Shown piece by piece: positions 17,809 to 39,447 of a stretch of DNA of 64,000 bases. Positions within the stretch are counted from its first letter, which is position 1. Every line of letters begins with the position of its first letter. The notes beneath the pieces were generated by a model. It did not search any database. It saw only the letters and a list, made by a program, of their open reading frames with translations, and was not told the origin of the DNA. The position numbers were made by a program, and so were the translations under genes. The DNA comes from Verrucomicrobiota bacterium (GTDB lineage Bacteria; Verrucomicrobiota; Verrucomicrobiia; Limisphaerales; UBA11358): positions 57,797-121,796 of the forward strand of contig JBEKZC010000002.1 of NCBI GenBank assembly GCA_049510295.1, read 5' to 3'.

Positions 17809-17815
17809 AAATTTT

Positions 17816-18410: not shown

Positions 18411-18664
18411 AGCCGTGCTGTGAAAATTGTCCTGTCACGTTTTGGTGACGCACCCGGTTGAGATGTCACCTGCCTGAAACATTGCGCTCAAAAACCTTTT
18501 GTAACGGGGCGGCTTGAACTTTCAAGATGGTGTAATCACCCGGCACGAAACTGAGTGCGGCTGGCCGGTTTATGGAAGTTGGTTGGGTGAAATATCTTTA
18601 ATATGTCGGCGTTAAGAAGGTTGAAAATTTAAACCGTTAACCGTTTAAAATTTAAAAAAATCAT

Positions 18665-19679: not shown

Positions 19680-21068
19680 ATGAAAAAAACGATACTCCTT
19701 ACATTGGCGCTCGGCCTTGCTGGCGCCCCGTCGCTCCTGGCCGGCAACGTTGATGTGTATATCACCGGGTCCACGGCCTTCCGAGCAAACGTCTATACCG
19801 CTTGTCAAAAGTTGTTCACTACCGGCAGCTCCACCCCCGTTTACTACGGCGACACTGCGCATGGCGGTGCCACTTCGGGTTTTGGTTCCAGCACGGCCGC
19901 TTGGGCCATGACGGGAACCCCCATATCTGGACTCACGAATCTGAATCCCAGTGGCAACACGCTGACCATCCACGGCCTCTTCACCGGCTCGATTCAGGGC
20001 ATGCAGACTACGGAACAAAGCACCAAGCTCATTTTCCCGAATGCTGATGGCACCCCAAACGGGAATTGCGCCACCTATTCCACGAACAGTCCCACCATCG
20101 GCTTTTCCGATGCGTCCGGAGTGTCCACTCCCTACCCGGCGACGGGCAACTACGTTGAAGAACAGGTGTGTGTTCAGCCTTTCGTCATGGTCAAATCAAC
20201 CGCCAGCAGCGGCGCAGTGACCACTATCAGCAACGTCAGTTGGGAACAGCTTGAATACGGCATTCCGGTGGGACGCATTCCCCTCGCGGCTTGGACAAGC
20301 CATATTACGGACACCAACACGTTTGTTTATCTGATGCAACGCACCAAGGACTCCGGCACCCGCCGCTGCGAAACCGCCGGGAATTATTATCAATATGGCA
20401 AAACGGTCGGCATCTATATCTACGACTATACAAACAACTTCTTCTATACTCCCACCGTTTCTGCCGCAACTACCTATGGGGCCTCTCCCAACGGTGTTGT
20501 CGGTTCGGCGGGTCTCAACAATGCGAATCTGAACTGGGGATATGGTTATGTTGCCGGTGGTGACATCAAGAATTCACTGAACAACAACAACGCTGCCAAC
20601 CAGGCCATTGCCTATCTGTCAATCTCCGACGCCAAGGGCGTAAACACCGCAGGCGGCAACTGGGCCAATGTGCTCTCCTACAATGGTTTCTGGCCGACGG
20701 CCGCTGGCGCAGGCATCCATGGCACTACCGGCACCAACGACTACTCGCCCATCACCCTTGGCTACTATCCGTTGTGGGGTTTGGAAGTCCTGGTTCATCC
20801 CACCGACCCCAGCAAGATCTCTGACCAAGACATCACGAAGACCCAATTGGGCGACCAGTACACGCCCGGCAGCTTCATGGGTGTGTTCAATTACCAAACC
20901 GTGAACTACCCCGGCAGTTCGCCCCTCACTGGCAGCATCGAAAACGAAATCGAATTGAGCAAAACTCCTAGTGGTTCACCGGCAGCGGGGGCCACAGCCA
21001 TCCGCCTTTCCGACATGTTTAATTATCGGCAGTCGGTTGGCGGAACGATTTCGCCGCCGTTTAATTGA
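19680..21068 (+). CDS. Secreted PstS/DING-like (type II substrate-binding fold) protein
   Basis: Signal peptide; ITGSTAF, IGFSD and RTKDSGTR parallel PstS motifs GAGATF, FGASD and RSDGSGTT in the same order. Confidence 0.6.
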   Translation: MKKTILLTLALGLAGAPSLLAGNVDVYITGSTAFRANVYTACQKLFTTGSSTPVYYGDTAHGGATSGFGSSTAAWAMTGTPISGLTNLNPSGNTLTIHGLFTGSIQGMQTTEQSTKLIFPNADGTPNGNCATYSTNSPTIGFSDASGVSTPYPATGNYVEEQVCVQPFVMVKSTASSGAVTTISNVSWEQLEYGIPVGRIPLAAWTSHITDTNTFVYLMQRTKDSGTRRCETAGNYYQYGKTVGIYIYDYTNNFFYTPTVSAATTYGASPNGVVGSAGLNNANLNWGYGYVAGGDIKNSLNNNNAANQAIAYLSISDAKGVNTAGGNWANVLSYNGFWPTAAGAGIHGTTGTNDYSPITLGYYPLWGLEVLVHPTDPSKISDQDITKTQLGDQYTPGSFMGVFNYQTVNYPGSSPLTGSIENEIELSKTPSGSPAAGATAIRLSDMFNYRQSVGGTISPPFN

Positions 21069-21083
21069 TATCAGTTATCGCCG

Positions 21084-21120
21084 AAGGCCGGTGCGAATTC
21101 GTTCGCGCCGGCCTTTTTTT
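21084..21120 (+). terminator. Intrinsic terminator
   Basis: AAGGCCGGTGCGAA-TTCG-TTCGCGCCGGCCTT followed by a T run. Confidence 0.9.
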
Positions 21121-21171
21121 GGAAGATTCCACAGTTTCAACCCCGGAATTCAGGTTCAAAAGTTCCCGAAT

Positions 21172-21204
21172 TGGCACCTGATCTTCATACGGACGTAACG
21201 ATTC
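21172..21204 (+). promoter_or_regulatory. Degenerate Pho-box-like array
   Basis: TGGCACCTGAT|CTTCATACGGA|CGTAACGATTC, 11-bp period, about 30 nt before the ATG at 21237. Confidence 0.35.
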
Positions 21205-21236
21205 AGGTTCAAGTTCCTGCAATTAGATTCAAGCCC

Positions 21237-21809: not shown

Positions 21810-21854
21810 AGCCCGCCTTCCTATGGCCGAACACCGCCGTAATCCACCCAGCCA

Positions 21855-22013
21855 TCAGCGTAGTTTCGCCTTTCCCAACATGATCATCACTATCGCAGTG
21901 ATGCCGGCGATGGCCAGGCCCGCCAACAAGGCAAAACGCAGGGTGCGCATTTCGCGCCGCCGTTGATCAGGTTGCAAACGCGGGAACAACAATTTTTCCA
22001 AATTTAGTGTCAT
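21855..22013 (-). CDS. Small single-pass membrane protein
   Basis: MTLNLEKLLFPRLQPDQRRREMR followed by a hydrophobic helix and basic tail. Confidence 0.55.
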   Translation of the reverse strand: MTLNLEKLLFPRLQPDQRRREMRTLRFALLAGLAIAGITAIVMIMLGKAKLR

Positions 22014-22147
22014 AAAATTCAAAAATTTGACCCGCACCTTGACGTTGCATTCAAGGTTGAACGTTAAGAGCCGGTTACAAGTTCGCGATCCAGCTTGTCG
22101 TTCGCGTCATAAATTTTCTGGCCCCCGGTCTGCGAGTTAACGCGCTT

Positions 22148-22291
22148 GAAAATGTCACCCGCTTGTTTCCGTCCCGCCTTTGACGGAATTGGGGAAGTGT
22201 AGTTTGATGGCTGCGCAAAAGAGAGAAATAATCGTTCCGCTGATTCGCCACAGGCGCTGGTGTGCGTTCAGACACCAGCGCCTTCTATTTC
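22148..22291 (+). ncRNA. Candidate small RNA unit, copy 1 (Pho-like box, sigma-70 promoter, about 75-nt body, terminator)
   Basis: Near-identical to 26845-26986; TTGACG-N17-TTTGAT at 22180-22208; 12-bp hairpin 22252-22283 followed by TCTATTT. Confidence 0.5.
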
Positions 22292-22462
22292 CAAAAGAAA
22301 AAGGGTTGGTTGCCGTGAAAGTCTGTTGACGCCGTGCCTTGCCGCTTGACTCTCAACTTTCCACGTTCAACCACCCAAGTGAAAAAGACGTGGCGGCCGC
22401 TTGGCGTTGGAACCAAGCGGGCCGACGGCCAAAAGCCATGAATTTGCGCACTTGGCAAGATT

Positions 22463-22484
22463 TGTCACCTACTTGTAACTTTCC
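22463..22484 (+). promoter_or_regulatory. Pho-box-like site upstream of CHAD-sixA
   Basis: TGTCACCTACT|TGTAACTTTCC, 11-bp spacing. Confidence 0.65.
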
Positions 22485-22565
22485 GTTGGCAAGGGCGAAC
22501 CTACCCTGCGGGCGGTTTGACTCTTTGAAAGCGACGAGTGGAGTCATTCCAAGTCAAAGCATTTG

Positions 22566-23531
22566 ATGAATCACATTATGCGCCGGCAAAGCCAGTCAGA
22601 CATCATCCCCGTCCAAACCGCCGACGTGCTGAAGCACCTCGGCGATTCGTTGAACACGCAGTGGCGGCGTTATCGCAAACGGCTGAAGCGCTGCCAGAAG
22701 CGTTTTTCCCAGGACGCCGTGCATAACTCGCGTGTGGAAACCCGACGGCTGCTCTCGACCATCGAGTTGCTCGGCGCGTTCGTTCCTGAACACGACATCC
22801 GGAAGGCCCGCCGCGCGCTCAAGCATCACCTCGACACTTTCGACCAGCTCCGTGATACGCAGGTCCAATTGACTTACGTGGGGCGGATGGCGGGTACCTT
22901 TCCGGAAGCGCACGCGTTTTACGACTGGCTGCAGGACCGCAAGGCCCGTTTCACCCGGACAACACGCAAAGCCGTCAAACATATCAAGACGAAGCGTTTG
23001 GGCCGTTGTCTTACGGCATTTGAAAAGGGGATCCGGCTCCAGCGCAAACGAATCACCCGCGAACAGGCTTTCGCGATTGTCCAGCGCGCCATAAATCAGG
23101 CGTTTGCCCGGGTCTCGCAACTTTGCCGGCACGTGCGGGCCGACGACACCAAGACCATCCACCGCACGCGGATTGCGTTCAAGCGCTTCCGTTACATGGT
23201 CGAGGCGCTGTCGCCCCTGCTGCCCGCCGTCACGGAGGACCATCGCCGCGCCATGCGTGGTTACCAGTGCATGATGGGTGACATCCAGGACATGGAAGTA
23301 TTGCTGGCGGCATTGGACAAATTCGTGCAAAAGAAAGAAGTCAGCGCCGCGTCGGCCCGCCAGATGAAAAAAGAGCTGGTGCGCTGGCGCCAGATGCTGA
23401 TTCAGGTCTATCTGAACGCGGCGGGCCGGTTGCAGCGTTTCTGGCCACCCCCCGGACTCAGGCAACCAGCGCAAAAGCGCAAAACGGAAACTCATGAACC
23501 TCTACCTGCTTCGCCACGGCATCGCCACTGA
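22566..23531 (+). CDS. CHAD-domain (polyphosphate-binding) protein
   Basis: AVHNSRVETRRL, LRDTQV, IHRTRIAFKRFRY, MGDIQD; very basic and helical. Confidence 0.88.
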   Translation: MNHIMRRQSQSDIIPVQTADVLKHLGDSLNTQWRRYRKRLKRCQKRFSQDAVHNSRVETRRLLSTIELLGAFVPEHDIRKARRALKHHLDTFDQLRDTQVQLTYVGRMAGTFPEAHAFYDWLQDRKARFTRTTRKAVKHIKTKRLGRCLTAFEKGIRLQRKRITREQAFAIVQRAINQAFARVSQLCRHVRADDTKTIHRTRIAFKRFRYMVEALSPLLPAVTEDHRRAMRGYQCMMGDIQDMEVLLAALDKFVQKKEVSAASARQMKKELVRWRQMLIQVYLNAAGRLQRFWPPPGLRQPAQKRKTETHEPLPASPRHRH

Positions 23532-23997
23532 ACCGGAAATGGCCGGTTATAAACCGGATTCCGAGCGTTCCCTCACCACCAAAGGAAAAGCCCGCCTTCA
23601 CGTGGCCGCCAAGGCGATGGAGGCATTGGACCTGTCCTTCGACCTGATTCTTTCCAGCCCGTTCCGGCGCGCGAAGCAGACCGCCGAGATCATCGCCAAA
23701 AATTTCAAGCTGCGGAAAAAACTGGCCTTCTCCGACGACTTGACTCCCGCCGGCAACCCCCGGTTGTTGATTCAACAATTGAACCAGTTTCATCCCGAAC
23801 CGGAGAACGTCCTGCTGGTCGGCCACGAACCGTACCTGGGCCAACTCATCGCGTTGCTGGCCGCCGGCAATACCAGCCTGGAGATTGATTTTAAAAAAGG
23901 CGGTTTGTGCAAATTGGAGGCGGAATTCCTGCTTTATGGCCGCTGCGCGAAACTGGTGTGGCTGCTCACCCCGCGGCAAATGGAATTGATGACGTAA
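23494..23997 (+). CDS. sixA: Phosphohistidine phosphatase
   Basis: LYLLRHG, SSPFRRAKQTA, LLVGHEP. Confidence 0.9.
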   Translation: MNLYLLRHGIATEPEMAGYKPDSERSLTTKGKARLHVAAKAMEALDLSFDLILSSPFRRAKQTAEIIAKNFKLRKKLAFSDDLTPAGNPRLLIQQLNQFHPEPENVLLVGHEPYLGQLIALLAAGNTSLEIDFKKGGLCKLEAEFLLYGRCAKLVWLLTPRQMELMT

Positions 23998-24316
23998 CGC
24001 GGGCCGACTGAAGTTGGAGTTCACGTTTTGGCGTGGACACAGAGTGGTGCGATGATCCCGAATGCACGCTCCGCATGCCGAATCCTTACGGTGGAGAAAA
24101 CATGATCCGGCAGGTAAGAGCTTCCGCAACGGCATAAACTGCCTTTTCCGGGCGGCCGTAATTTGCGGGACAATGGTGATTCGATGGATTTTGTCCATCG
24201 GTTGGGCGAATGGGTCGGGTTGTATGGCAAATACCGGTCTCTTACAAATCCTTGGCCTACGCAGTGGTCACTGCCGCGCGAGATTTGAAGTGGCGCTGCA
24301 GACCAGACGGTCAACC

Positions 24317-24703
24317 TCAACCGCGTGAATCCACTCTGTTGGTTATATCCGATGATTGTGGGAACATCGGTATTATGGTTTCAACCGCCATTCCTTGGGA
24401 CTGAAACCGACCCACAATAGTCTGCATGTGGTTATTGATTTCCTCTACCGAGTATTGGCTCTTTGGTATGCAAAGAACCCAATAACCGTTTTCTTCAGCC
24501 TCAAGGTTCCCGGCAAAACGCGTGGCGATTACATAGTGGGTTGGAAGGTCTCCGGTTATAGTTTGCACCGTTGTCTTACCGGGTGGATGGCTTTTGGGAA
24601 ACTCGTCGATAAGGCCCAACTCAAGCAGTAAATCCACAGCTTGTTTATCATCTGAAAATTCAAACAGCTTGTTCGGCTTATTGATGATTTTATCTTTGAC
24701 CAT
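24317..24703 (-). CDS. Hypothetical protein, low GC
   Basis: 128-codon open frame in AT-rich DNA; ATG start. Confidence 0.6.
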   Translation of the reverse strand: MVKDKIINKPNKLFEFSDDKQAVDLLLELGLIDEFPKSHPPGKTTVQTITGDLPTHYVIATRFAGNLEAEENGYWVLCIPKSQYSVEEINNHMQTIVGRFQSQGMAVETIIPMFPQSSDITNRVDSRG

Positions 24704-24952
24704 ATCTAAATGAGTTGCTTGGCATTTTAAGGTAAAAAATCACTTTTTAAAAGTAAAATGTTGACTAAAAAGTATCCGTCTGAGGGAGCACGCATGCGAA
24801 ATGCGTGCCGCCGCAATTCAGACACCATGACAGCTACCTGTCAACCGGAGCGTTCGGATTTTTTGCGCCAACGATAGAAAACCAAGTGATGCAAGAACAG
24901 AAACCTGATTCATTCGTCGCCCTGCCATTTCATCTCAAAAAAATCCGGCCGT

Positions 24953-25171
24953 CTAGTTCCTCCACGCGTACCCGAAGGCTGATAGCGGTCCACCGGCGTT
25001 GGTCCCTCGGTTCGGACCCGGTGTTGAACCCGTGGTCGCCTCGCTAATCCTGGGCTTCTGCATCCGAGAATTGGCCTCATGAAAGAAAAAACTCTCCGAT
25101 GCCACTAGCATCCTTCTGACCCCTTTGGGTAGAGATTGAAAATCGGGGTACGTCGTGATTATTGATTTCAT
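24953..25171 (-). CDS. Small hypothetical protein
   Basis: MKSIITTYPDFQSLPKGVRRMLVASESFFF looks protein-like; no family recognised. Confidence 0.45.
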   Translation of the reverse strand: MKSIITTYPDFQSLPKGVRRMLVASESFFFHEANSRMQKPRISEATTGSTPGPNRGTNAGGPLSAFGYAWRN

Positions 25172-25368
25172 AATGCGCTTTTGTCCTCTTTTGACTGTTG
25201 GACGTACTGTGCTCCAAAAAGTTCAATCGAGCCAGTTACGTTCACGTTACGCCGGCTCCCGAGTGGTCGCTCGCGCTCAAATGCGGTGAATAACTCGTGC
25301 TTGCCATCCGCACGAAAGAGACGATGCTTTTTTAGATTCGCGAAGTTCAGATTAACCAGTAGTTTTTT

Positions 25369-25689
25369 ATGTTGAACCAAACGCTTGGGCCAGCTCATGA
25401 GTTGAGCATCGATCTAACCCTTGTCAGGGATGCGGATGGCAATCCGTCTTGTTCCATCCGAGTCCAGGCTGCGCAGATGATCACTTACGATCAACAGATT
25501 GGTTTCACGCGGTTGAGATTGACCAAGGGCAGGGTCCTTGAGGTCAGAGAGGGCACCGATCAAATTGACCGTCTCGTTCGAGGCGCCGCCGCCAATCTCG
25601 CTGGGAATACGCTACAACCTGACCGGCTGCGAATACGTGCTGGGGAATGTGAGCCAGACGAAACTGCTACTGTGGGGAATGCTGGATGA
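25369..25689 (+). CDS. Possible FlbD-like small beta protein (start uncertain)
   Basis: IDLTL...FTRLRLTKGRVLEVREGTDQIDRLV resembles the FlbD pattern TxIxLxxGxxxxVxExxxxI. Confidence 0.35.
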   Translation: MLNQTLGPAHELSIDLTLVRDADGNPSCSIRVQAAQMITYDQQIGFTRLRLTKGRVLEVREGTDQIDRLVRGAAANLAGNTLQPDRLRIRAGECEPDETATVGNAG

Positions 25690-26024
25690 GGTTGAAATCT
25701 AATCGTCTCCCCACCACGTCTCCCCACCATTTTTTCTCGAAAAAACCCGGTCAATCCGCAACAGCTCAATGCGGCGCGGGTCGTCGGTCTTGGGACTGTT
25801 CACCAGACTGCTGACGGGCATCCGGTCATGCTACGGGGCGATGGTCGCATTGAAGCGTGCTTGCAAATTTGTCCGGTCCAGCCACTTTGGAAAGCGTTAC
25901 CCTAAACCCCGCTCCAACAGGAAATGAACAACACTTAACCGCGACGACGGTTCATCGAAACGGCCAAATAGCTTCAAGTGGATTTCCACCGCTCTGGATT
26001 GGCGAGGTTCGGCAAGCAACGTGT

Positions 26025-26672
26025 TCAATCATTCGTCGGTTCTTGGCCAGAAAAGGAAGGCGCGGCAACGTCAGGTGCAGGCAACGGATTCAGGTCAACC
26101 AATTTTTGGCGGGTGGCTGAAACTGGTTTGGGTTCGGGTGCAACTGCCGGGACCGGTTGGGCAGGTTTGCCGTTGACAGTTTTCTGCGCCGACCGGCGGG
26201 CGCCGGGTGCTCTGCGGGCGGCTGGCTTTGGTGACTGTCGCGATTGAATAGGTGACACTCGCGGTGTTGTGTCCATTGTCGTTTTGACCGGCGTTGACTT
26301 CGGCTGGTTGCGCAGCAAATCGTCATCGCTCCGGGGCAACTTTGGTTTCGAGGAGGGTTTCTGAACAAGTTCGGAACCTCGAACAAGTCGTGCGGGGTTG
26401 TTCTTACATTGCTCCTTCCTGATTCGCTCTCGCAGCATCTCCAACTTTGCCTGAGCGATTCCGAGAGTTGCCGAAGACTCCTCGGCCCGATCCTCAGCCT
26501 TCCTGGCCGATTTCCTGGCCATCTTGGACAACTTCCGCGCTTGTTTCAAATTGACTTTCGCCGCCCGGGCCAATTCGTGTGCGAGTTGGGCCGCTTTTGC
26601 GTCAACCGCAACTTGCATTTTGGCGCGTTCCACCTCTTTGCTTGCCTTGTTGAGAAGCAATGTCGTGTTCAT
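26025..26672 (-). CDS. Lys/Ala/Pro-rich low-complexity protein with N-terminal coiled coil (histone-H1-like composition)
   Basis: AK/ARK-rich helical half followed by a disordered Pro/Lys/Ala tail. Confidence 0.6.
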   Translation of the reverse strand: MNTTLLLNKASKEVERAKMQVAVDAKAAQLAHELARAAKVNLKQARKLSKMARKSARKAEDRAEESSATLGIAQAKLEMLRERIRKEQCKNNPARLVRGSELVQKPSSKPKLPRSDDDLLRNQPKSTPVKTTMDTTPRVSPIQSRQSPKPAARRAPGARRSAQKTVNGKPAQPVPAVAPEPKPVSATRQKLVDLNPLPAPDVAAPSFSGQEPTND

Positions 26673-26844
26673 GGCTGGCCTTTCGATCGTTCTTCGTGCC
26701 CGGAAGCAGATTGACGAAACGCTTCATTCGCGGTCGCACCCGTCAGTATTAAAATCACGTTTTATGCTCGAACGCAAGCAACTTCCCAAACAGTAACTGC
26801 GCTCGAATAGGGTACTTCGCTGCCTTACCGCCTTCTTGTTTTCT

Positions 26845-26986
26845 GAAATGTCACCGGTTTGTTTCCATCCCGCCTTTGACGGAATTGGGGAAGTGTGGTT
26901 TGATGGCTGCGCGAAAGAGAGAAATAATCGTTCTGCTGACTCGCCAGGCGCTGGTGTGCGTTCAGACACCAGCGCCCTTCTATTTC
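26845..26986 (+). ncRNA. Candidate small RNA unit, copy 2
   Basis: Near-identical to 22148-22291; TTGACG 26876-26881, TTTGAT 26899-26904, same terminal hairpin. Confidence 0.5.
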
Positions 26987-27012
26987 AACCGCCCGGTTGT
27001 TGAGACGGATTG

Positions 27013-27474
27013 CTACCGGGTGCCGGTGGCGGTGAACAACGTGGAAAATAATGGAGCGGAGCGGGCGGATGCGAGTTGGACCAGCGGGGTTTTATCATCC
27101 GGCATTTCCCGGGCCGGAGCGTTGGTCAGCCCCGGGCAATAATACAAGTCCGCCCAGACATAAGCCGTGGCGAGATAACCGTGGACTTCAAATTGTCCGA
27201 AATTTCCCGTGCTGTTGGGTGGATCAACTCCCAGCAAGACCACCACGTTTGCGCCTTTCCCGGCCGCATCCTGTCTCATATGCGCCATGGCATCGTCAGC
27301 GTAATGCCGGGTCAGGTGATCGTTAAATGAAGTCCACCCGACATGCACTCCGTCCGGGGGTGGCGCTGCCAAAAAAAATACGTTACTGGAAGATACTTTG
27401 GCGGGTGTTGTCTGGTTGGATGCACAACCGGCGGCAAACAAGGAAAGACACAGGACTATAATTGTTTTCCCCAC
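27013..27474 (-). CDS. Lipoprotein, YbjQ-like fold possible
   Basis: Lipobox AAGC; AMAHMRQDAAGKGANVVV resembles 'AxxxLxxxAxxxGANAVI'. Confidence 0.6.
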   Translation of the reverse strand: MGKTIIVLCLSLFAAGCASNQTTPAKVSSSNVFFLAAPPPDGVHVGWTSFNDHLTRHYADDAMAHMRQDAAGKGANVVVLLGVDPPNSTGNFGQFEVHGYLATAYVWADLYYCPGLTNAPAREMPDDKTPLVQLASARSAPLFSTLFTATGTR

Positions 27475-27706
27475 GCATCCAATTTAACAAAAATGGCTTG
27501 TTTGGCAATTGATTAAAAAACTTGAGCTGTTTGGAAGTTAAAAGCGTTCTTAACAGCCGACCGTGACATTCCAAGATTAAGAGGCGTCCAATGTCCGGAA
27601 AATGTCTCTTTTGACCGTTTTTGTCCGATAAATGAAATTTGTTGTTTCAAAATTGTTGCCAGGCTGACGCACGATAGTCACAAGCTGTCTTCAATCTTGT
27701 GCGCAG

Positions 27707-30700: not shown

Positions 30701-31069
30701 TATGCCATGGGTGGCACGGCAGGCGTTCGTGGCTATCAAGATGGCCAGGCCTATGGCGATACCGGCTGGCGTTTCTCCATCGAACCACAAACGCCCCTCA
30801 TGAACATCGGCAGGGTCGGCAACGAGGGACATGAAGAGCCTTGCTGGGTTCGCGCCTCGGTGTTCCTGGATTATGGCAGGATTTATTTGCTTGCCCAACC
30901 ATCACCCGGCAGTGACAGCCACGAGTCATTTTGCGGTGCGGGTTGGGCCATGACCGCCAATATCGGCAGTCACATGGACGGGCGATTGACGGTCGCCTGG
31001 CCCTTGATCAGTCACGCCGGGGAATCTGACGGCGTTCACGTCTATTTCGGCATTGGTGCTCAATTTTAA
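27707..31069 (+). CDS. AraC-family regulator fused to a ShlB/FhaC (TpsB) outer-membrane transporter
   Basis: AraC HTH (SERHFSRLFREEFG, IINVAYDSGY, FKKRFGMTPSEWR), internal signal-like segment ending AIA-Q, POTRA repeats (YRNQGY, YRERGY), VRGY loop motif, terminal Phe. Confidence 0.85.
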   Translation: MTIERHLLLQELTLRPSGEWTPSHHEWFMVRVAEGVGYWLQPGTARQLSVGDGLLTSSSSNGVLRASQLGPLKLQFFSVQPQYLNGLLTVAEWHQLEVAPNNLTSQISIFTAGEPLAQRFTRLAEQTQREGLPVRCGLLQLWANAIAGLLPAPAMESAEGGRLHERFRQLVGQMPEVELSQCSLRDLAGQLNCSERHFSRLFREEFGVPFRARQIELRLQRARQLLTNSDAKIINVAYDSGYQHLGLFNVMFKKRFGMTPSEWRQQNLRRSLPPQSRKNLPKSVARAGVLLALFILNCISPAIAQTNSIVVPAQSSPTAPAESNAAPYFNVRAYAVKSNTLLATNILTRIFSKYTGTNVGLDEIVKAASDLQLEYRNQGYPTMSIAIAQQQIINGTVTMNVFPMAFPQILVSGKRYVSSGNRTQVSSNLSAAEPALPQMAPAVFAPTTNAVPLATGHQTVAAGPEAMARVRAALFQKLAELNAKEQDTRVHVVSTNAGPRFAVDKYLVMGNSVLPPEAIARAITNVDGAFGTNTSFDGIRAVMIELQKAYRERGYVTVSVGLPQQKLTNATVKVKVTEGRLAAINVTGNRYFSSNDVMRSLPSLQTNILLNSHILQRELDNANASRDRQIYPVIGPGPEPDTSELTLKVQDQLPLHARLELNNQATPGTPDLRANLNVQYDNLWDLEHQVGIQYNFTPEQLKNSDPYYTTPFDNPLIANYSAYYRLPLGGYNSVEQQVDANPGSFGYNEITHQFQVPPPTGRPELTLYASRSTSDTGVQMGPRNVIIGATPSGNPTNLEAIGTQTAGENVTLNEGLGFKFSLPLPALDKLASTLTFGADYKKYQANSANANIFYALTSTTNNGSAYKFGDVLYTLQSVRPTAVDYFPLNVGWNGSLPDTLGTTFFNAQVNFNILPIFSEENTQVTTTNVTTTETNVVTTTKTIHDHSFSSVAYTTNARPHYVTLQLGANRIQTIYKDWSVKFHADGQWADGALISNEQYAMGGTAGVRGYQDGQAYGDTGWRFSIEPQTPLMNIGRVGNEGHEEPCWVRASVFLDYGRIYLLAQPSPGSDSHESFCGAGWAMTANIGSHMDGRLTVAWPLISHAGESDGVHVYFGIGAQF

Positions 31070-31087
31070 ATGCCATGACCAACAACA

Positions 31088-31109
31088 TGTCACCAATTTG
31101 TAACGTACG
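31088..31109 (+). promoter_or_regulatory. Pho-box-like site upstream of tpsA
   Basis: TGTCACCAATT|TGTAACGTACG, 11-bp spacing, 40 nt before the ATG at 31150. Confidence 0.7.
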
Positions 31110-31149
31110 GTCGCACGCGATTGCCCTAAACTTAAAAATTAGGATTGTT

Positions 31150-34100
31150 ATGCGCACACTGTATCGCCACTCCAAGTTCCGCCGGCTGGTTACCGCGGTT
31201 CTGATGCTTGGTATTGCGCTGGACGCGCCGGCCAATCCAACAGGCATGACCGTGCATGGCGGTTCCGCCACCGCCACCAGCAGCGGTTCACAACTCACCG
31301 TCACCACGACTTCGCAAAACACCGTCCTCAATTGGCAGAGCTTCAACATTGGTGCCGGCGAGACCACGATTTTTCAGGAACCTTCCACCACCTCAATCGT
31401 GTGGAACCAGATCAACAATGCGAACCCGTCGCAGATTTACGGCAGTCTCCAGGCCAATGGCATCGTGGTGCTGCTCAATTCCTCCGGTTTTTATTTTGGA
31501 CCTAACTCGTTTGTGAGCGCCGCCGGGCTGGTCGTTTCCACCGCGAATTACATCCCGCCGCAAAATTCCGGCGGCGGTTGGGAGTTCAACGGCCCGCCCC
31601 CGCTCGCCAGCATCGTCAACTACGGGCAGATCAACATTGGCCAGGGTGGCTCGGCATTTTTGATCGCCGACCACGTCGAGAACCACGGCACCATCAGCGC
31701 GCCCGGCGGTACTGTTGGCTTGGCGGCGGGACAGACCGTGCTCTTGAGCGATCGTCCCGACGGTCGCGGCATGAGCATGCAGGTCACGCTGCCCAGCGGT
31801 TCAGTGGACAATGAAGGCCGGCTCATCGCCGACGGCGGAACGATTGCCATGAACGCCAAAGTGGTGAACCAAAATGGTTTCATCCAGGCCAACTCGGTGC
31901 AGAATGTCAACGGCACCATCGAACTCGTCGCTTCCGATCAACTGACGCTGGGTGCGAACTCTCAAATCATCGCCAGCGGTGACAATTCGCCGGCCGGCAG
32001 CGCTGGTGGCAATGTGACGCTTCAATCAGGAAAAGATTTCAGCGACAGCGTTGGCAGTCAAATCATCACCACCGGTGGCACGCAAGGTGGTAACGGCGGC
32101 GACGTCGAAATCAGCGCGCCAAACGTCCTGTCGCTGAATTCCAGCATCAACGCGCGGGCGCAGGCGGGTTGGACGGCGGGGAAATTGTTGCTGGACCCGG
32201 ATTACATCATTTTGGACACGACCGGCTCCGGCAGCGCCGGCAGTGGTACCGTGTTGGCCGGGAGCAATCCCGGCAGCACGCTGGATTTGAACGTGAACAG
32301 CGCGTTCGCCAACCTTGCGGTTTCCACGATCATTCTTCAGGCCGTGTATGACATCACGCTCGCCAGCGGCACGTCGTGGAACCTGAGTCAGACCATCGGG
32401 GCAAATTTCGGAGGTGTGACCAGCGGCCAACTGACGCTGGAGGCCGGGCGCAACATCATCTTTCAATATGACAACGTTTCTCAAAATGGCTCTTCAATTT
32501 CTGACGCCAACAATTGGTCCATCGCCCTTTATGCCGGGGTCAGCGATTTTACCCAGCCAACGCCAACGGTCACACCTGGCAAGGGTTTAATCTCGTTCTT
32601 CGATGAATACGATCCAAACAACCCTCAACCCATCACCCAACCTAGTGGATACATTCAAACCGCCACGGGGAACATCACCTTGGTTGCCGGGCAGGCCATT
32701 ACAGTAGGTTCTGGATATGTGATCACGACGGGGGGTGGCAGCATCAGCGCCCATGCCTTGGCGGGAAACATTGACACCGGCAACTACGCGGAAGGCTACA
32801 GTTTTCTTGGTCAGCCTAATTTGAGTGATGGTTTGGGCGGCATCAGCACCGAAGCGGGCGGTGATGTGACGCTCATCGCAGGTGGTGACGTGAAAAGTGT
32901 ATTGCCCGGCAGCGGTGTTTATTATTACGACGGCAATCCAGTGCCAATCAACAACGACGATTACATGACGGCGGGTTCCGGTGCTTATGGCTCCCAACCC
33001 GGGAATGTGACCATCGTGGCGGGTGGCAATGTGACCGGTAATTATCTCGTGGCCAACGGCACGGGCGTCATCTACGCCGGGGTGAAAATGGTCAACGGCG
33101 TTCCCGTGGACGCCAATGGCAATCCCGTCACGGATGGCAAAAGTTATGTTTTGGATTCGAGTTCCACGGGCAGCGCCGGGACGGCGGACAATGAACTGGC
33201 GTTGAATCTGATCACGGGCGGCTGGACGGTGGACGCGGCGCAGGACGTCTACCTCCAGGAAGTCCGCAATCCCAATGGCGTCTTTGACATCAATGGCGGA
33301 CGCTCTAACGTCCATAAATTTAATTACGCGGCTGGCGACTATGTTGATTTGAACGCGGGAAACCTGGTGCAGTTGGGCGCAGATCCCTCGGTGCTGCCAC
33401 GACCGACGGGCATCCAGGTGCCATTCATTTATCCCTCCATCTTGAATATCACTGCGGGTGCGGGTGGTGTGGAATTGGTGGGCGGCAGCACCGATCCATT
33501 TAACCAATTGATTTTATTCCCTTCACCGCAGGGAAGCCTCACCATCAACACCACGGACGGCGGCTCGCTTTTCAGTGACCTGGCGTCTTCTGGCGGAGTC
33601 CCCCAAATTTTCAATCTAATCGTCTCGGACAGCGGCAGCCTGCAACTTACCACGAGTTCCTCCGATGCGAGCTGCACCTTTGGCATAAACGATCATGCCG
33701 CCTCGCCGATTCATGCCCCCACACTGACTGATCCCGACAATTCCACCCCGATCGCCCTGAACATCTCGGGGGATATGAGCCTGGTGTTGCTGGCCGCTCC
33801 CGAGGCGGCGCAAATTAATGTGGTTGGCAACATGTACAACTGCCGGTTTCAGGGCATGAACTTGTATGCCAACGACGTAACCAGCATCAATGTCGGTCAG
33901 ACCGCCAAGGAAAACATGGAGAACAGCGGTTTGCTCAATCGCAACACGGATTCCGGCATCACGGTGGGTGGTGACATCATTAACCGGGGCGCTTTCACCT
34001 CCGTTACCCTTGATTTGACTCAGACTGGCGTGCAAGCCCCGGACATGGATTATCTTTCAGAAGCAATAAACAACGCAATTGGCAGCACTTCCATTTCGGC

Positions 34101-35865
34101 AGCCACACTGACCACGAGTTTATATTATAATCCCCAAACCGGTGTCCTGACCTATCAGAACATCTCCGGGGTGAGCATTGCCAGTGTTCTGAACCTGCTG
34201 CAAAATTTGACGGTCCAAGTTTACCAAAATGGCGTCCCCGAACTCGACAGCAATGGTAATCCCGTAACGACTACCGTTTCCGTCTTGACCTCCGCAACCG
34301 CGCAAGCACTTCTGGCTCAATATAACGCGGAGAACGCGTTCAGCGGGATTCCTGCCGGTTCGGGGCCTCCTGACGGCACTTACGGTTACACCATTGGCGG
34401 CGGTGGACAATTCAACATTACGGCACGGACCATAGACCTGGGAACCACCGCCGGGATCCAATCGGAGGGCGTGGGGCTTTATACGGTTCGCGGCAATTAT
34501 CCACTCGCCAGTTTGTTTGGCAACGGAGGCGTGTTCGATCATGGGGCCGACATCACCATCACCACCACCGGGAACCACTCCGAGGGAGAAACTGCCGGCG
34601 ATCTCGTCGGAGACTTGGACATGTATTCCAGTTCCATCGCCTCTTTGCAGGGCGGCAATATCACCATCTACGCCGGCGGAGATATCAATGCCGGCTCGGC
34701 GGATTTTTCCGTCAACACCGCTTCTGCTCGCGGCATTTATTCGACGGATCAAGGCAATGTTTTTGTTTACGCCGACGGGGACATCAATGTCAATGGTTCC
34801 CGGATTGGCGTCTATGACACACGCCAGGACAATGGTTCCACGACGCCCGGCGGTTCCGTAACCGTGGTGTCCAGGAATGGCAATATAGACGCGGGAAGCG
34901 GTGGTTCCGGGTTTGTGGGCGTCAGTTCTTATCTGGTTAATCCCGACCAGTCGGTTACCGCGGAGTCATCAACCATTCCGGGCAGCGGCATCATGGAAGT
35001 TTCGTACACCCAAAACGGCAATATCTTGATTGAAGCCCCCAATGGCTCGGTCAACGCCGCTGCGGGTGGCATCCTCCAACTGCTCTTGAACGGGCCTCCA
35101 CTTCCTGAATCAACAACTCTTTTTGGTTTGCCGCTTAATCATGCAGCCCTGGCAAAAATGTTTGATCTGGCGCTTAACGGCAAGATGAAGGCCGCTCTGG
35201 ACTTGCAACAGGTTCTCAATGGCAATCCAGGAAATAGTGTGGTGGATGTTTTTGCGGGTTATGAATTGCAACAACTGGATGGTTCCGGCAATCCCATTGT
35301 GGATGCCTATGGCGACCCAGTGATCACAGCCCTCAATCTGTCTGAAGGCACACTGGTGAAAACATCCGACAATCAGGATATAACCGCCACCGGATCGGGA
35401 GTATTGGGTGCCGGCACGGTAACCATGGATGCTTCCGGTAACATCACGGGAAACATTTTTACCCTCGGCGGTTTAAACATAACGGCCGTTAACAACGTTG
35501 ATGTAAATGCTTTGGGACTTGGCCCTGTTGTTATCGTTGCAGCCAACCTTGGTCCTAGCATTATTGTCGGTATCCAAGGTGTCTCTGCTACCGGCGACAC
35601 GAGTGGCGCTTCGTTATTATCAAACAACCAAGTCAGCGGCGGCCAGAACAGCATGGCTGCCGGCACGGCTGCGGATGCGGCCAGCCAGGGAGCGGCCAGT
35701 GAAACTTCCACCAGTCCAGCCAAAAATGACGACACGACTGCCACCGATGACGACGTGAAGAAAAAAGGCAAGGCGGCGGCCACGGTGCAAAAGAAGGGCC
35801 GCGTGACCGTTTTGTTGCCGCCGAAGAATTTATCCCAAAACCAAACCTCAAGTAACCATTTATGA
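31150..35865 (+). CDS. Filamentous haemagglutinin-family (TpsA) exoprotein with a DUF3739-like C-terminal region
   Basis: Signal peptide then NPTG, LNWQSFNIG, SQIYGSLQANG TPS domain; beta-helical repeats; GGNITIYAGGDINAG...VNGSRI...SRNGNIDAG; start set at ATG 31150. Confidence 0.88.
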   Translation: MRTLYRHSKFRRLVTAVLMLGIALDAPANPTGMTVHGGSATATSSGSQLTVTTTSQNTVLNWQSFNIGAGETTIFQEPSTTSIVWNQINNANPSQIYGSLQANGIVVLLNSSGFYFGPNSFVSAAGLVVSTANYIPPQNSGGGWEFNGPPPLASIVNYGQINIGQGGSAFLIADHVENHGTISAPGGTVGLAAGQTVLLSDRPDGRGMSMQVTLPSGSVDNEGRLIADGGTIAMNAKVVNQNGFIQANSVQNVNGTIELVASDQLTLGANSQIIASGDNSPAGSAGGNVTLQSGKDFSDSVGSQIITTGGTQGGNGGDVEISAPNVLSLNSSINARAQAGWTAGKLLLDPDYIILDTTGSGSAGSGTVLAGSNPGSTLDLNVNSAFANLAVSTIILQAVYDITLASGTSWNLSQTIGANFGGVTSGQLTLEAGRNIIFQYDNVSQNGSSISDANNWSIALYAGVSDFTQPTPTVTPGKGLISFFDEYDPNNPQPITQPSGYIQTATGNITLVAGQAITVGSGYVITTGGGSISAHALAGNIDTGNYAEGYSFLGQPNLSDGLGGISTEAGGDVTLIAGGDVKSVLPGSGVYYYDGNPVPINNDDYMTAGSGAYGSQPGNVTIVAGGNVTGNYLVANGTGVIYAGVKMVNGVPVDANGNPVTDGKSYVLDSSSTGSAGTADNELALNLITGGWTVDAAQDVYLQEVRNPNGVFDINGGRSNVHKFNYAAGDYVDLNAGNLVQLGADPSVLPRPTGIQVPFIYPSILNITAGAGGVELVGGSTDPFNQLILFPSPQGSLTINTTDGGSLFSDLASSGGVPQIFNLIVSDSGSLQLTTSSSDASCTFGINDHAASPIHAPTLTDPDNSTPIALNISGDMSLVLLAAPEAAQINVVGNMYNCRFQGMNLYANDVTSINVGQTAKENMENSGLLNRNTDSGITVGGDIINRGAFTSVTLDLTQTGVQAPDMDYLSEAINNAIGSTSISAATLTTSLYYNPQTGVLTYQNISGVSIASVLNLLQNLTVQVYQNGVPELDSNGNPVTTTVSVLTSATAQALLAQYNAENAFSGIPAGSGPPDGTYGYTIGGGGQFNITARTIDLGTTAGIQSEGVGLYTVRGNYPLASLFGNGGVFDHGADITITTTGNHSEGETAGDLVGDLDMYSSSIASLQGGNITIYAGGDINAGSADFSVNTASARGIYSTDQGNVFVYADGDINVNGSRIGVYDTRQDNGSTTPGGSVTVVSRNGNIDAGSGGSGFVGVSSYLVNPDQSVTAESSTIPGSGIMEVSYTQNGNILIEAPNGSVNAAAGGILQLLLNGPPLPESTTLFGLPLNHAALAKMFDLALNGKMKAALDLQQVLNGNPGNSVVDVFAGYELQQLDGSGNPIVDAYGDPVITALNLSEGTLVKTSDNQDITATGSGVLGAGTVTMDASGNITGNIFTLGGLNITAVNNVDVNALGLGPVVIVAANLGPSIIVGIQGVSATGDTSGASLLSNNQVSGGQNSMAAGTAADAASQGAASETSTSPAKNDDTTATDDDVKKKGKAAATVQKKGRVTVLLPPKNLSQNQTSSNHL

Positions 35866-36695
35866 CCACCATGCTCATACATCCCATCCTCGCCTCCGGC
35901 GCGTTGCAGTTCGCCTTCGAAAAGGCCACGATCGAAGGCAAAATCACCATCGGTTCGCTGTTCATCCTGTCCATGTTCAGTTGGACGATCATCATCACCA
36001 AGTTTCGCCAGCTTTCCATCGCGCGGCGGGCGGCCAAAAAATTCTTCGCCGCCTACAGCGCCACGCGCGATCCACTGGACATCAAACGCAAGGGCGAGAA
36101 CTACGAAGGCGCGCCCGCTTACCAGCTTTACAGCCGCGCGGCCGACGAGCTGGATTACCACCTCAAGCACAACCCCGTCATCGTGAAGGACCGGCGCCGC
36201 ATCAGCGCCGCGTCGTTTGAAGCCGTGAAGGTGACGCTGGAGGAAGCCGCCGCCACCGAGGCCATGGCCTTGGAAAAGGGCATGATCGTGCTGTCCACGG
36301 CCGTGGCCGGCGGGCCGTTCATCGGTCTGCTCGGCACGGTTTGGGGCGTCATGGAAACGTTTGCCGGCATTGCCCGGGCCAATGCCGCGAGTCTTACCGC
36401 CATGGCGCCCGGTGTGGCCGGCGCGTTGATTGCCACGGTCACCGGCCTGCTCGTCGCCATTCCCGCCATGTTCGCCTACAACTTCATGGTCACCACCATC
36501 CGCCACATCACGCAGGAACTGGACGGTTACGCCACCCGTTACGCCACCCAGATTGAACATGCCTACGTGGACAACCGCCCCCTCTCGGAGGAACTCAAGC
36601 AGGCCAACGAAGCGCTGGCCGTGAGCCTGGTCGCCGCCCTCAAGGGCGACGAGAATGTGTTGCGCAACACGCCGGTGTTCGCCGCCGAACGTTAA
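35862..36695 (+). CDS. exbB: MotA/TolQ/ExbB proton channel subunit
   Basis: GPFIGLLGTVWGVM, APGVAGALIATVTGLLVAIPA. Confidence 0.9.
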   Translation: MTTMLIHPILASGALQFAFEKATIEGKITIGSLFILSMFSWTIIITKFRQLSIARRAAKKFFAAYSATRDPLDIKRKGENYEGAPAYQLYSRAADELDYHLKHNPVIVKDRRRISAASFEAVKVTLEEAAATEAMALEKGMIVLSTAVAGGPFIGLLGTVWGVMETFAGIARANAASLTAMAPGVAGALIATVTGLLVAIPAMFAYNFMVTTIRHITQELDGYATRYATQIEHAYVDNRPLSEELKQANEALAVSLVAALKGDENVLRNTPVFAAER

Positions 36696-36707
36696 GGCCG
36701 TCGTGCC

Positions 36708-37121
36708 ATGAAGAAATGTTCCCATTCCGAGCACGAAACGCTCACGCAGTTGAACATCACGCCGTTGCTCGACCTGGCGTTCGTGTTGCTGGTCATTTTC
36801 ATCATCACCACCACACCCATTGTGAATGACCTTGATCTGAACCTGCCGACGGCGGCGAGGCACCAGAAAGACCCGCCGCGCAAGGCCAATTACATTTCCG
36901 TTCAGGCCGACGGGAAAATTTATTTGAATACCAAGAAGGTGGGCATAAGCGACCTGTTGCAAACGCTCGTGGGCCTGCGCATGGACGACCCGGACTTGAA
37001 CATCGTCGTGCGCGGCGACGGCAAGACGAAATACCGGCAGATTCGCGCTGTGCTCGACGCCTGCCAGCAGGCCAACGTCATGAAAGTGGACCTGGCCACC
37101 GAACCCGCCGGCCAGTTTTAA
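36708..37121 (+). CDS. exbD: ExbD/TolR subunit
   Basis: LNITPLLDLAFVLLVIFII, VVRGD. Confidence 0.9.
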   Translation: MKKCSHSEHETLTQLNITPLLDLAFVLLVIFIITTTPIVNDLDLNLPTAARHQKDPPRKANYISVQADGKIYLNTKKVGISDLLQTLVGLRMDDPDLNIVVRGDGKTKYRQIRAVLDACQQANVMKVDLATEPAGQF

Positions 37122-37122
37122 C

Positions 37123-37800
37123 ATGCAACCGCAAACCCAGCCGCGCAAACCGCGCAACTCGTCGAAGGTGAACCTGGCCATCTCGGTCACCTTCCACGTG
37201 GTGCTGGTGGTGGCGTTGTTTTACCTGGCGGCCCGCCAAGGGTTTCTGGGCAAGCAACTTCAGAAAATCTCGGTGGAAATGGTGAGGGAAAAACCGCCGG
37301 AAAAACCCAAGGAACCTGAAAAACCGAAAGTCGAGCCGCCCAAGGTGGAAACGCCGAAGGTCGAAACCCCCAAGATGGTCGAAATGCCCGCGCCCCAGCC
37401 GACGGCCGTGGCGGCGGTCACCGCGCCGCCGGCCATCGCGCCGCCGTCGGTCGATCTGCCGTCGTTTGAATTCGAAGGCGGCAAGGCGGTCGAGACCAGC
37501 TCCGATGCGGTGCAGGTTTACAAAGGTTACCTGGAATATGCGTTGCGGTCTAAATGGAACCGGCCGGATGACCGGCCGGATGACAATTACGTGGCCGAGG
37601 TGGAAGTGGCGGTCAACCGCACGGGCGACGTCAGCGACCCAGCCTGGAGAAAAGGCTCCGGCGACCCGAAATGGGACGAGTCCGTGAAAAAGGTGTTTGC
37701 CACGGTCAGCCGCCTTGACCATCCGCCGCCGACGAATTTCCCGCCGCGGGTGACCATCCGGTTTGACGTGCAGGAGGAAACCGAACCCGTGTTGCAATGA
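37123..37800 (+). CDS. TonB/TolA-like energy transducer
   Basis: N-terminal TM with SxxxH, Pro/Lys/Glu linker, C-terminal KGSGDPKWDESV domain. Confidence 0.82.
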   Translation: MQPQTQPRKPRNSSKVNLAISVTFHVVLVVALFYLAARQGFLGKQLQKISVEMVREKPPEKPKEPEKPKVEPPKVETPKVETPKMVEMPAPQPTAVAAVTAPPAIAPPSVDLPSFEFEGGKAVETSSDAVQVYKGYLEYALRSKWNRPDDRPDDNYVAEVEVAVNRTGDVSDPAWRKGSGDPKWDESVKKVFATVSRLDHPPPTNFPPRVTIRFDVQEETEPVLQ

Positions 37801-38216
37801 AAAAGATCTCCCATTCCCATCATAGCACCCTGAACGAGCTGAACATCACGCCGCTGCTGGACCTGGTGTTTGTTTTGCTGGTGATCTTCATCATCACCAC
37901 GCCGCAGTTGATGAACAACCTGGAAATGAACCTGCCGTCGGGCAAACCACCGCCGAAGAAGGCGGCTGAGCCGAAGATCAACAAGATCGCGGTGGACGGG
38001 CGGGGGCAAATCACCTTCAACAGCGAAGTGGTCACAGTGACGCAATTAAAAGAAACGCTGCAGCAACTCAAGGCGGCCGATCCCGGACTCAGCGTGGTGG
38101 TGAAAGGCGCCGACGAGGTGGATTACCAGTTCATGGTCAACGTTCTGGATGTCCTCCGCCAGCTCGACATCACCAAGGTGGGTTTGGCGACGGAAGCCGG
38201 CGCGACTAACCCATAA
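37797..38216 (+). CDS. exbD: Second ExbD/TolR subunit
   Basis: LNITPLLDLVFVLLVIFII. Confidence 0.9.
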   Translation: MKKISHSHHSTLNELNITPLLDLVFVLLVIFIITTPQLMNNLEMNLPSGKPPPKKAAEPKINKIAVDGRGQITFNSEVVTVTQLKETLQQLKAADPGLSVVVKGADEVDYQFMVNVLDVLRQLDITKVGLATEAGATNP

Positions 38217-39383: not shown

Positions 39384-39447
39384 ACTTTCGCCGCCCGCAT
39401 CATCTGCAGCGCCTCAACAATCGTCAAAATTGAAAATAAATTAGATT

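Follow-up and report, generated by a model that had tools for sequence, protein, structure and literature searches.

In Pseudomonas aeruginosa, the PUMA3/σVreI system includes the gene segment lapA-pdtA-phdA-pdtB-exbB2-exbD2-tonB4-PA0696 and the AraC-like PA0701a (PMC7035377, PMC2729926). In the published accounts consulted, phosphate starvation induces this segment by way of PhoB and a pho box (PMC7035377, PMC4971064, PMC5422565), its Ton set is described as uncharacterised (PMC7035377), and the association of two-partner secretion (TPS, type Vb) genes with ExbBD and PA0696 in several Proteobacteria is noted as early as 2009 by Llamas et al. (PMC2729926). A TpsA/TpsB pair is also described in Ton-dependent nutrient acquisition by HxuCBA of Haemophilus influenzae (PMC5422565). 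We report here on a cluster found in a stretch of 64,000 nucleotides (nt; called here the window) of contig JBEKZC010000002.1 from a Verrucomicrobiota bacterium, whose genome assembly is 3.79 Mb and 92% complete. This cluster encodes two secreted proteins of 316 and 462 residues (called here p316 and p462), an AraC-type regulator fused to a TpsB transporter (AraC::TpsB), a TpsA exoprotein and an ExbB-ExbD-TonB-ExbD set. We regard the system as a variant of the uncharacterised TPS-ExbBD-TonB association known from Pseudomonas. We favour, with a probability of about one half, its reading as a Pho-linked TPS fibre equipped with its own ExbB-ExbD-TonB-ExbD motor, which would grip the TpsA tail, and with the regulator serving as a pre-sequence of TpsB.

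Compared by published description, PUMA3 and the present cluster share a TPS pair, dedicated ExbB-ExbD-TonB proteins, a secreted phosphate-related protein (the PstS-like LapA in Pseudomonas) and a putative porin. The first-pass annotation, made on the letters of the window, had drawn a parallel with a Pseudomonas gene set induced by phosphate starvation, and this parallel is documented in the accounts of PUMA3 (PMC7035377, PMC2729926). The two systems differ in that the order is here tpsB-tpsA-exbB, the regulator is fused to TpsB, a second ExbD is present and the porin belongs to a pstSCAB operon. No extracytoplasmic function (ECF) sigma factor, anti-sigma factor or VreA-like domain was detected among the open reading frames (ORFs) scanned between 16.9 and 49.5 kb, a scan that included no dedicated search for them. 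Regarding HxuCBA, a plug-containing receptor, HxuC, is present in that system whereas none is linked to the cluster described here, in which TonB was modelled on the exoprotein itself.

On the + strand, the genes follow each other in the order p316, p462, araC::tpsB, tpsA, exbB, exbD, tonB and exbD (Table 1), with gaps of 12 nt at most from araC::tpsB to the second exbD. tpsA begins 5 nt after tpsB, and the tpsA stop and exbB start codons overlap in an ATGA sequence, as proposed at first pass for the coupling of the Ton genes to tpsA. The neighbourhood was surveyed by tblastn with the window proteins (at least 40% query coverage) in one genome per species, yielding 77 loci; the 10-kb flank taken for each locus limits the counts of genes lying farther from p462. 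p462 was present in 76 of these loci, p316 in 55, AraC in 41, TpsB in 38, TpsA in 31, ExbB in 22 and TonB in 17. When p462 was at least 55% identical and at least 9.5 kb of downstream sequence was available (n=23), AraC was found in 19 loci, TpsB in 18, TpsA in 16 and ExbB in 9; the counts were 7, 7, 4 and 4, respectively, at 35-55% identity (n=9) and 8, 10, 10 and 7 below 35% (n=22). The proposed gene set, from p316 to the Ton genes, thus recurs across the 77 loci and is co-conserved in Verrucomicrobiota; the absence of such co-conservation, which the first-pass annotation had named as an outcome that would speak against its proposal, was not observed. As AraC lies 0.2-1 kb after p462 in many relatives (182 nt at the minimum), the 6.6-kb gap of the window is a local insertion. 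The cluster is, from these sequence comparisons, composed of two conserved units, p316 with p462 and the araC::tpsB-tpsA-exbB-exbD-tonB-exbD operon.

Table 1. Features of the cluster and of its surroundings, with positions counted from the first nucleotide of the window.
Feature	Position	Strand	Remarks
Two weak Pho-like pairs, 11-bp-spaced TGTCAC-type direct repeats	18432-18480	+	~190-230 nt 5' of p316
p316	18665-19615	+	316-aa secreted protein, no named family
p462	19680-21068	+	PstS-fold (predicted), signal peptide, ~140 extra residues
Segment with CHAD, SixA-type histidine phosphatase and three unknown genes	22145-26976		Bracketed by direct repeats
Four to five 11-bp-phased direct repeats, degenerate TTGTCAC type	27642-27691	+	Starts 65 nt before the araC::tpsB start
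araC::tpsB ORF	27707-31069	+	1120 aa
AraC module, residues 1-282	27707-28552	+	Helix-turn-helix (HTH) at residues 187-266
Internal signal peptide	28553-28618	+	Predicted signal peptidase I site after residue 304, AIA/Q
Mature TpsB (predicted)	28619-31069	+	H1-like helix, POTRA domains, ShlB barrel
tpsA	31075-35865	+	1596 aa; TPS domain at residues 55-291, beta-helical repeats
RVTVLLP, TpsA C-terminal strand	35800-35820	+	Predicted TonB-box equivalent
exbB (ExbB/TolQ-family proton channel)	35862-36695	+	MotA_ExbB (PF01618), 98.7 bits
exbD/tolR copy 1	36708-37121	+	PF02472, 102 bits
tonB-like	37123-37800	+	TonB_2 (PF13103), 44.2 bits (cut-off 22)
exbD/tolR copy 2	37797-38216	+	PF02472, 94 bits
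porin-pstS-pstC-pstA-pstB-phoU operon	42928-49497	-	Neighbouring context, outside the machine

The TPS pair consists of a TpsA with a TPS domain (PF05860, 91.3 bits for a cut-off of 33.5; TIGR01901, 60.5 bits) encoded beside a TpsB with POTRA domains and a ShlB/FhaC-type barrel. The assignment of TpsA to the DUF3739 type, made at first pass, is correct insofar as a match exists; it just exceeds the threshold (29.1 bits for a cut-off of 27). DUF3739 was found in none of 14 control genomes, and a literature search retrieved the term only in unrelated work. The Ton set comprises a MotA/ExbB channel, ExbD and a TonB with its membrane anchor, a Pro/Lys/Glu linker and a C-terminal domain; ExbB remains below the NCBIfam equivalog cut-offs, with 141 bits for TolQ (cut-off 221) and 114 bits for ExbB (cut-off 206).

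The tails of the TpsA proteins contain an acidic run and a KKK run followed by (A)LAQKV(G/S)RVTVxLP; the R, V, T, V, L and P of RVTVxLP do not vary among the 17 tails aligned. Within their last 70 residues, 113 of 120 TpsA homologs contain the motif R[VI]T[VI]x[LIF]P; six of the seven others carry near variants and one is truncated. ExbB is encoded -7 to +284 nt after TpsA in 14 of the 16 loci with a recovered RVTV tail, the two exceptions being a locus that stops at a contig end (L041) and one devoid of ExbB (L052). A complex model of TonB residues 105-225 with the last 55 residues of TpsA, the one partner pair modelled, gave a score of 0.61, the best of three controls reaching 0.03; the mark it passed is reached by 58 of 80 solved complexes and by 2 of 110 mismatched pairs, a rough calibration obtained with custom alignments. 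At least 93% of the contacts are shared between runs, the partner pLDDT (the predicted local confidence) is at least 51, and the modelled interface brings residues 85-96 of the tail, which hold the motif, against the last strand of TonB (residues 209-219). The invariant tail strand and the complex model together make the C-terminal tail of TpsA the likely target of the Ton motor, instead of TpsB or the porin. The first-pass annotation had the motor acting through one of these two; the modelled pairing points elsewhere, and the porin is part of the pst operon. The pairing of a TonB box with TonB, known from TonB-dependent transporters and imported bacteriocins, is described in general terms in PMC2729926. 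Likewise, a short strand is modelled here as an addition to the sheet of the TonB C-terminal domain, with the difference that the motif stands at the C-terminal end of a secreted TPS exoprotein and not at the N-terminus of a barrel plug or of a colicin.

No protein of 2794 to 5000 residues with the TpsA tail turned up in a search for longer homologs, a weak piece of evidence, and a literature search for a TonB box in a TpsA yielded only the PUMA3 and Hxu work. In agreement with the first-pass annotation, which had seen no classical TonB-dependent receptor in the window, profile searches detected none on the whole contig, and the Plug domain had no match in the 92%-complete genome. This genome holds seven MotA/ExbB-family genes and two TonB_dep_Rec barrel matches, both on other contigs, one of them (contig C111) beside its own ExbB.

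The TpsB of the first-pass annotation has the expected POTRA_2 (PF08479, 90 bits at residues 501-579) and ShlB (PF03865, 49.2 bits) domains; what had been missed is that it forms one ORF with AraC. The same annotation had the system wired to AraC, a statement that does not hold in its simple sense, AraC being translated as the pre-sequence of TpsB. The AraC module contains a full-length HTH_18 domain (PF12833, E=4.5e-24, 85 bits, model positions 1-80 of 80); AraC-type domains from the PDB match only residues 164-270, and the N-terminal 165 residues matched no family. In the window, a single reading frame runs without a stop from the HTH to the POTRA region, and the frame is unbroken from AraC to the end of TpsB in 37 of the 39 loci holding both parts. 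The long proteins also appear in the gene calls of JGI and NCBI, under the automatic label 'hemolysin activation/secretion protein/AraC-like DNA-binding protein'. HTH_18 and POTRA_2 occur together in nearly all of the 120 homologs listed, and each is found in 100% of the 228 members of an Atlas cluster whose named members are all Verrucomicrobiota. Contigs from four RNA libraries (soil and wetland), derived from close relatives and mostly 90-99% identical, lie on the operon; one of them, of 1574 nt, continues from the AraC part through the signal peptide into TpsB, skipping an insert specific to the subgroup of the window. These contigs indicate presence in RNA libraries only, and uncovered bins carry no meaning.

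The junction between the two parts is made of a basic stretch, a hydrophobic core of about 14 residues, usually a proline, and AxA followed by Q. Of the 38 fused sequences, 36 have Ala at position -1, 33 have A, V, G, L or I at position -3, and 36 have Q, E or D at position +1. From its sequence, this segment has every feature of a cleavable Sec signal peptide, and the homologous segment of an unfused TpsB paralog, encoded on contig C32 of the same genome, is an ordinary N-terminal signal peptide. The precursor departs from the typical stand-alone form of TpsB in that the signal peptide sits behind an AraC module of 282 residues. An in-frame ATG, GTG or TTG is found near the hydrophobic core in 15 of the 38 sequences and a Shine-Dalgarno-like word precedes the start in just 2; a plausible internal start being so rare, the sequences indicate that TpsB must normally come from the fused precursor. 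In the alignment of the 38 fused proteins, the signal peptide is followed by an H1-like helix and then by the POTRA domains, and an extra POTRA-like module with a Pro/Ala linker is limited to the subgroup of the window. A TonB-box-like 'NSIVVPA' after the signal peptide was considered and dropped because it is confined to the window and to one other locus (L040).

The frame changes of two loci were located inside the TpsB linker at ~19700 in L035, where the junction between AraC and the signal peptide is intact, and at this junction itself (~14560-14620) in L027; they may be sequencing errors or natural splits. An unfused 293-residue AraC ortholog, 42% identical, lies directly 5' of exbB-exbD in a genome of the same order (L080, G330:C58, 4541-6805), with no TPS genes within the 16 kb around it, a position which ties the AraC lineage to motor genes. 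A search with the AraC part in 401 genomes of the phylum returned mostly generic AraC domains and gives no usable frequency; it recovered the long fused frame only in the window's own genome and the unfused ortholog in G330. No description of an AraC-TpsB fusion was found in the literature, and such a term did not appear in the Omp85/TpsB survey PMC4104836.

p462 was first described as a secreted PstS/DING-like protein. Its signal peptide and its PstS fold agree with this description, the DING part of which has to be qualified: the N-terminal DINGGG signature, by which DING proteins are defined, is absent, the mature N-terminus being GNVDVYITGSTAF. Taken as a single sequence, p462 gave no match in Pfam (E≤0.01), NCBIfam (E≤0.1) or the PDB, and it is missed by the curated PBP_like_2 model, which gives 136.6 bits for the canonical PstS of the window. 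Exhaustive searching brought up 135 relatives, and a profile built from 67 homologs matches solved PstS proteins (4exl, E=7.4e-11; 4ecf, E=4.5e-9). The AlphaFold2 (AF2) model of p462 (pLDDT 88.5, predicted TM score 0.88) gave 45 Foldseek matches at E≤0.001; among the matches listed, all are PstS, DING or other phosphate-binding proteins, the best being 4lat (E=3.5e-10, TM score by target 0.75), and DING structures match more weakly (for example 2q9t, E=4.3e-5). By hhalign, the p462 family and the window's own PstS are related with a probability of only 7.7%. Near-invariant motifs of the family are GSTAF, GS(I/V)xG, SD and R..DSGT, the last two aligning with the SD and R..GSG of 4exl and 4ecf. 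T32, S104, D144, R221, S225, G226 and T227, invariant or nearly so in the family alignment, may correspond to the phosphate-contacting residues of E. coli PstS. From profile and structural model, p462 is a protein with the type II periplasmic binding-protein fold of the PstS kind, and the lack of such a fold, named at first pass as fatal to the proposal, can be set aside. p462 thus resembles PstS and DING proteins by its fold and its SD and R..(D)SGT motifs, and differs from them by the missing PBP_like_2 match, about 140 extra residues, the lack of DINGGG and a location outside pstCAB, where the canonical pstS (46956-47969) fills the corresponding place.

The published format of a pho box is a pair of 7-bp direct repeats, both of them followed by 4 bp rich in A and T (PMC4971064). 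TTGTCAC-N4-TTGTC(A/C)C was found at -64 to -67 from the araC::tpsB start in many of the 42 loci examined, and the window's pst promoter contains TTGTCAC-N4-TTGTAAC at 49480-49497, about 63-80 nt before the porin start, the true start of the porin being a Met at ~49417 followed by a signal peptide. These pairs fit the pho box format, and the assignment to PhoB rests on this resemblance. The wiring to PhoB proposed at first pass is therefore backed by repeats in front of the operon in relatives and of the pst operon in the window, with the reservation that the window's own array is degenerate. The box was, however, placed before tpsA, which the 5-nt gap behind tpsB leaves no room for; the repeats precede araC::tpsB instead. 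The gene at 48017 (-) was correctly called a porin, as it matches Porin_5; pstS lies within 47 nt of it, followed by pstC, pstA, pstB and phoU, and a Porin_5 homolog adjoins the cluster in 9 of the 77 loci. As the first gene of a pstSCAB-phoU operon, this porin needs no link to the Ton system. CHAD, pstSCAB-phoU and a PHO4/PiT-type phosphate transporter gene (62329-63492, +) all lie within the window, in line with a phosphate link. Taken with the PstS fold of p462 and the pst operon nearby, the PhoB-type repeats point to phosphate shortage as the likeliest inducing condition.

A paralogous cluster is present in the same genome (contig C32, ~26940-36600, -). It encodes a p316-like protein, TpsB, TpsA, ExbB, ExbD, TonB and ExbD, with 43% identity to the window for TpsA and 62-76% for ExbB, ExbD, TonB and ExbD. 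This second association of TpsA with motor genes supports the Ton link.

The reading that we favour would proceed as follows. The precursor would insert in the inner membrane, its AraC part facing the cytoplasm; signal peptidase I would cut after AxA and the mature TpsB would move to the outer membrane. AraC would be left on a short hydrophobic tail, from where it might work while still membrane-bound, or a signal-peptide or site-2 protease might release it. TpsB would export TpsA, the extreme C-terminus of which would be retained in the periplasm as is reported for Bordetella FhaB. The RVTVxLP strand would then pair with the last beta-strand of the dedicated TonB in the fashion of a TonB box, and such a pairing would have the motor pull on the fibre itself (for tension, retraction or release) and not on a plug-containing receptor. 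Phosphate shortage would be the most likely signal, p462 would most likely bind phosphate in the periplasm and the fibre, at a guess, might adhere to or capture a phosphorus source. A bolder version, which we regard as rather doubtful, would link the two halves of the system: each TpsB inserted by Sec and cut by signal peptidase would yield one AraC molecule, then freed by an intramembrane protease, so that export would meter expression, and the Ton motor, gripping a TonB box at the periplasmic end of the fibre, would draw on proton-motive force to reel in or tension the fibre via TpsB as a phosphorus 'fishing line'.

Parts of this scheme have counterparts in described systems. The pair shares with FhaB/FhaC its TPS type and a TpsB in which two POTRA domains follow an N-terminal helix; FhaB/FhaC has no motor genes and no fused regulator. 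The C-terminal part of FhaB is reported to stay in the periplasm, and the FhaB prodomain is large and degraded. In the RsiV/σV case, signal peptidase is reported to act as the site-1 protease on a membrane protein, a cut that initiates the freeing of a cytoplasmic transcription regulator (PMC4183432). RsiV is an anti-sigma factor whose cleavage is triggered by lysozyme, whereas the cleaved C-terminal part is here an outer-membrane transporter, and cleavage of AraC::TpsB may be constitutive.

Several observations weigh against the favoured reading. The pass of the complex model may come from its likeness to the TonB C-domain/TonB-box complexes already solved and not from binding. The repeat array upstream of araC::tpsB is degenerate in the window, and a scan of the window for strict E. 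coli-type Pho half-sites gave three matches, none at the relevant promoters. In three distant loci (L052, L054 and L060), tpsA is not immediately followed by the Ton genes, and in the genome of the same order mentioned above an unfused AraC stands beside exbB-exbD without TPS genes. The C32 cluster lacks both a PstS-like gene and AraC, so the TPS-Ton core is not tied to phosphate as such, and the nutrient link of the cluster may be local rather than intrinsic. Finally, the targeting feature of p462 is a signal peptide only, which does not indicate a surface location, and the RNA-library contigs are no proof of transcription and are silent on regulation.

The doubt about the complex model is also what would favour a capture system of the Hxu kind, in which the fibre and the binding protein would take phosphorus or another substrate at the surface, Ton would drive its import via an outer-membrane channel encoded elsewhere or via TpsB, and the tail model would be a false positive. 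HxuA and HxuB are described as working with the TonB-dependent HxuC (PMC5422565, PMC4873976), and the genome has its two barrel matches on other contigs. We nevertheless hold such a capture system to be unlikely: neither the window nor the loci searched with its proteins showed a receptor within the cluster or next to it, the barrel match on C111 already sits by its own ExbB, and the invariant tail motif and the coupling of tpsA to exbB would be left unexplained. The C32 cluster, being devoid of p462, suits instead a motor-driven or anchored adhesin, active in surface movement or in envelope tethering (Agl-Glt-like or Tol-like), with the phosphate genes as mere neighbours; the higher score of ExbB with the TolQ than with the ExbB model and the matches of TonB with TolA and, weakly, GltJ go in the same direction. 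This has in our view a small chance of being right, given that AraC accompanies p462 in 19 of the 23 loci of highest identity with enough flank, that PhoB-type repeats keep the offset they have in the pst promoter and that the Pseudomonas counterpart is, in the accounts consulted, induced by phosphate starvation (PMC7035377, PMC5422565, PMC4971064).

A different fate of AraC::TpsB can also be imagined, in which the protein would remain uncleaved across the envelope: its regulator would be cytoplasmic, a single span would cross the membrane, and the POTRA domains and barrel would reach the outer membrane, so that the condition of the secretion pore would be signalled directly to the DNA. The preservation of one ORF in all but two of the loci holding both parts, the basic residues before the hydrophobic segment, which fit an N-in topology, and the long Pro/Ala linker of the window's subgroup, which could span the periplasm, would suit this arrangement. 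It appears improbable all the same, because the core of only about 14 residues, the proline and the AxA with its nearly constant Ala at -1 are typical of cleaved signal peptides and because the long linker is missing from most orthologs; moreover, we know of no protein that sits in both membranes in this manner. Contact-dependent inhibition or toxin delivery by TPS, which the pairing of TpsB with a large beta-helical exoprotein would recall, was rejected as very improbable: the C-terminus of TpsA is conserved and not polymorphic, Pfam and NCBIfam scans found no toxin domain, and the gene that follows tpsA is exbB and not a small immunity gene.

At the head of the cluster, p316 had no match in Pfam or NCBIfam. 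Its AF2 model (pLDDT 88.4) gave no Foldseek match at E≤0.001, its N-terminal domain matching no solved fold, and residues 241-316 are FN3-like in a VIA-wide structure search (Z 6.5, root-mean-square deviation 2.3 over 71 residues). Its Atlas neighbours are solely unnamed Verrucomicrobiota clusters. p316 adjoins p462 in 55 of the 77 loci, and the copy that heads the C32 cluster is 27% identical. Repeats comparable to the two pairs upstream of p316 (Table 1) precede it in several relatives (for example L035, L037, L039 and L040) and are tentatively assigned to PhoB from their sequence. A conserved block, ..CGAAACTGAGTGCGGCTGG..TGGA(A/G)G.., is also present 5' of p316 in the window (~18545-18590) and in other loci, and the 8-mer AAACTGAG occurs in 22 of 53 p316 upstream regions for 0.3 expected. 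This block may be an ECF-sigma-type promoter, which it resembles, or a leader element. A CTGTCACGTT word, like that before p316, is found at ~38565, 5' of the first gene after the Ton set.

Just 5' of p316, an ArsR-family regulator and an arsenite-methyltransferase-like methyltransferase of the S-adenosylmethionine-dependent type are encoded at 16954-18190 (-), a pair which adjoins the cluster in 10 of the 77 loci; arsenate is an analogue of phosphate. In the window, p462 and araC::tpsB are separated by CHAD, a SixA-type phosphatase (His_Phos_1) and unknown genes. The direct repeat that brackets most of this segment is about 135 nt long (22145-22282 and 26841-26976), with 101 nt at 93% identity and 32 nt at 100% identity, the latter part forming a strong hairpin; an insertion may have left it as a scar, or it may represent a terminator or small RNA present twice. 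Four genes (38841-42620, +) sit between the Ton genes and phoU, two of which are unknown (180 and 203 residues), the two others being GDSL-lipase-like (weak, below cut-off) and S64/trypsin-like peptidase (weak). Further on, a protein of 1545 residues with many Kelch repeats and a bacterial Ig-like domain is encoded at 50921-55558 (-).

Two-partner secretion is considered to work without an energy source at the outer membrane. TPS genes beside orphan ExbB-ExbD-TonB genes have been reported in Pseudomonas since 2009, and the account consulted proposes no partner for them (PMC2729926). A TonB-box-like strand that ends the exoprotein and is modelled on the cognate TonB makes the question of the Ton partner concretely testable; if true, a motor gripping the fibre would explain the purpose of the orphan exbB2-exbD2-tonB4 genes of Pseudomonas. 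The AraC::TpsB precursor would furthermore be a new way of coupling a regulator to envelope biogenesis. The relatives of the window are metagenome-assembled genomes of Verrucomicrobiota, mainly from peat and soil, and the stretch itself is present in peat metagenomes; the cluster being common in these Verrucomicrobiota, it may matter for phosphorus cycling in such environments.

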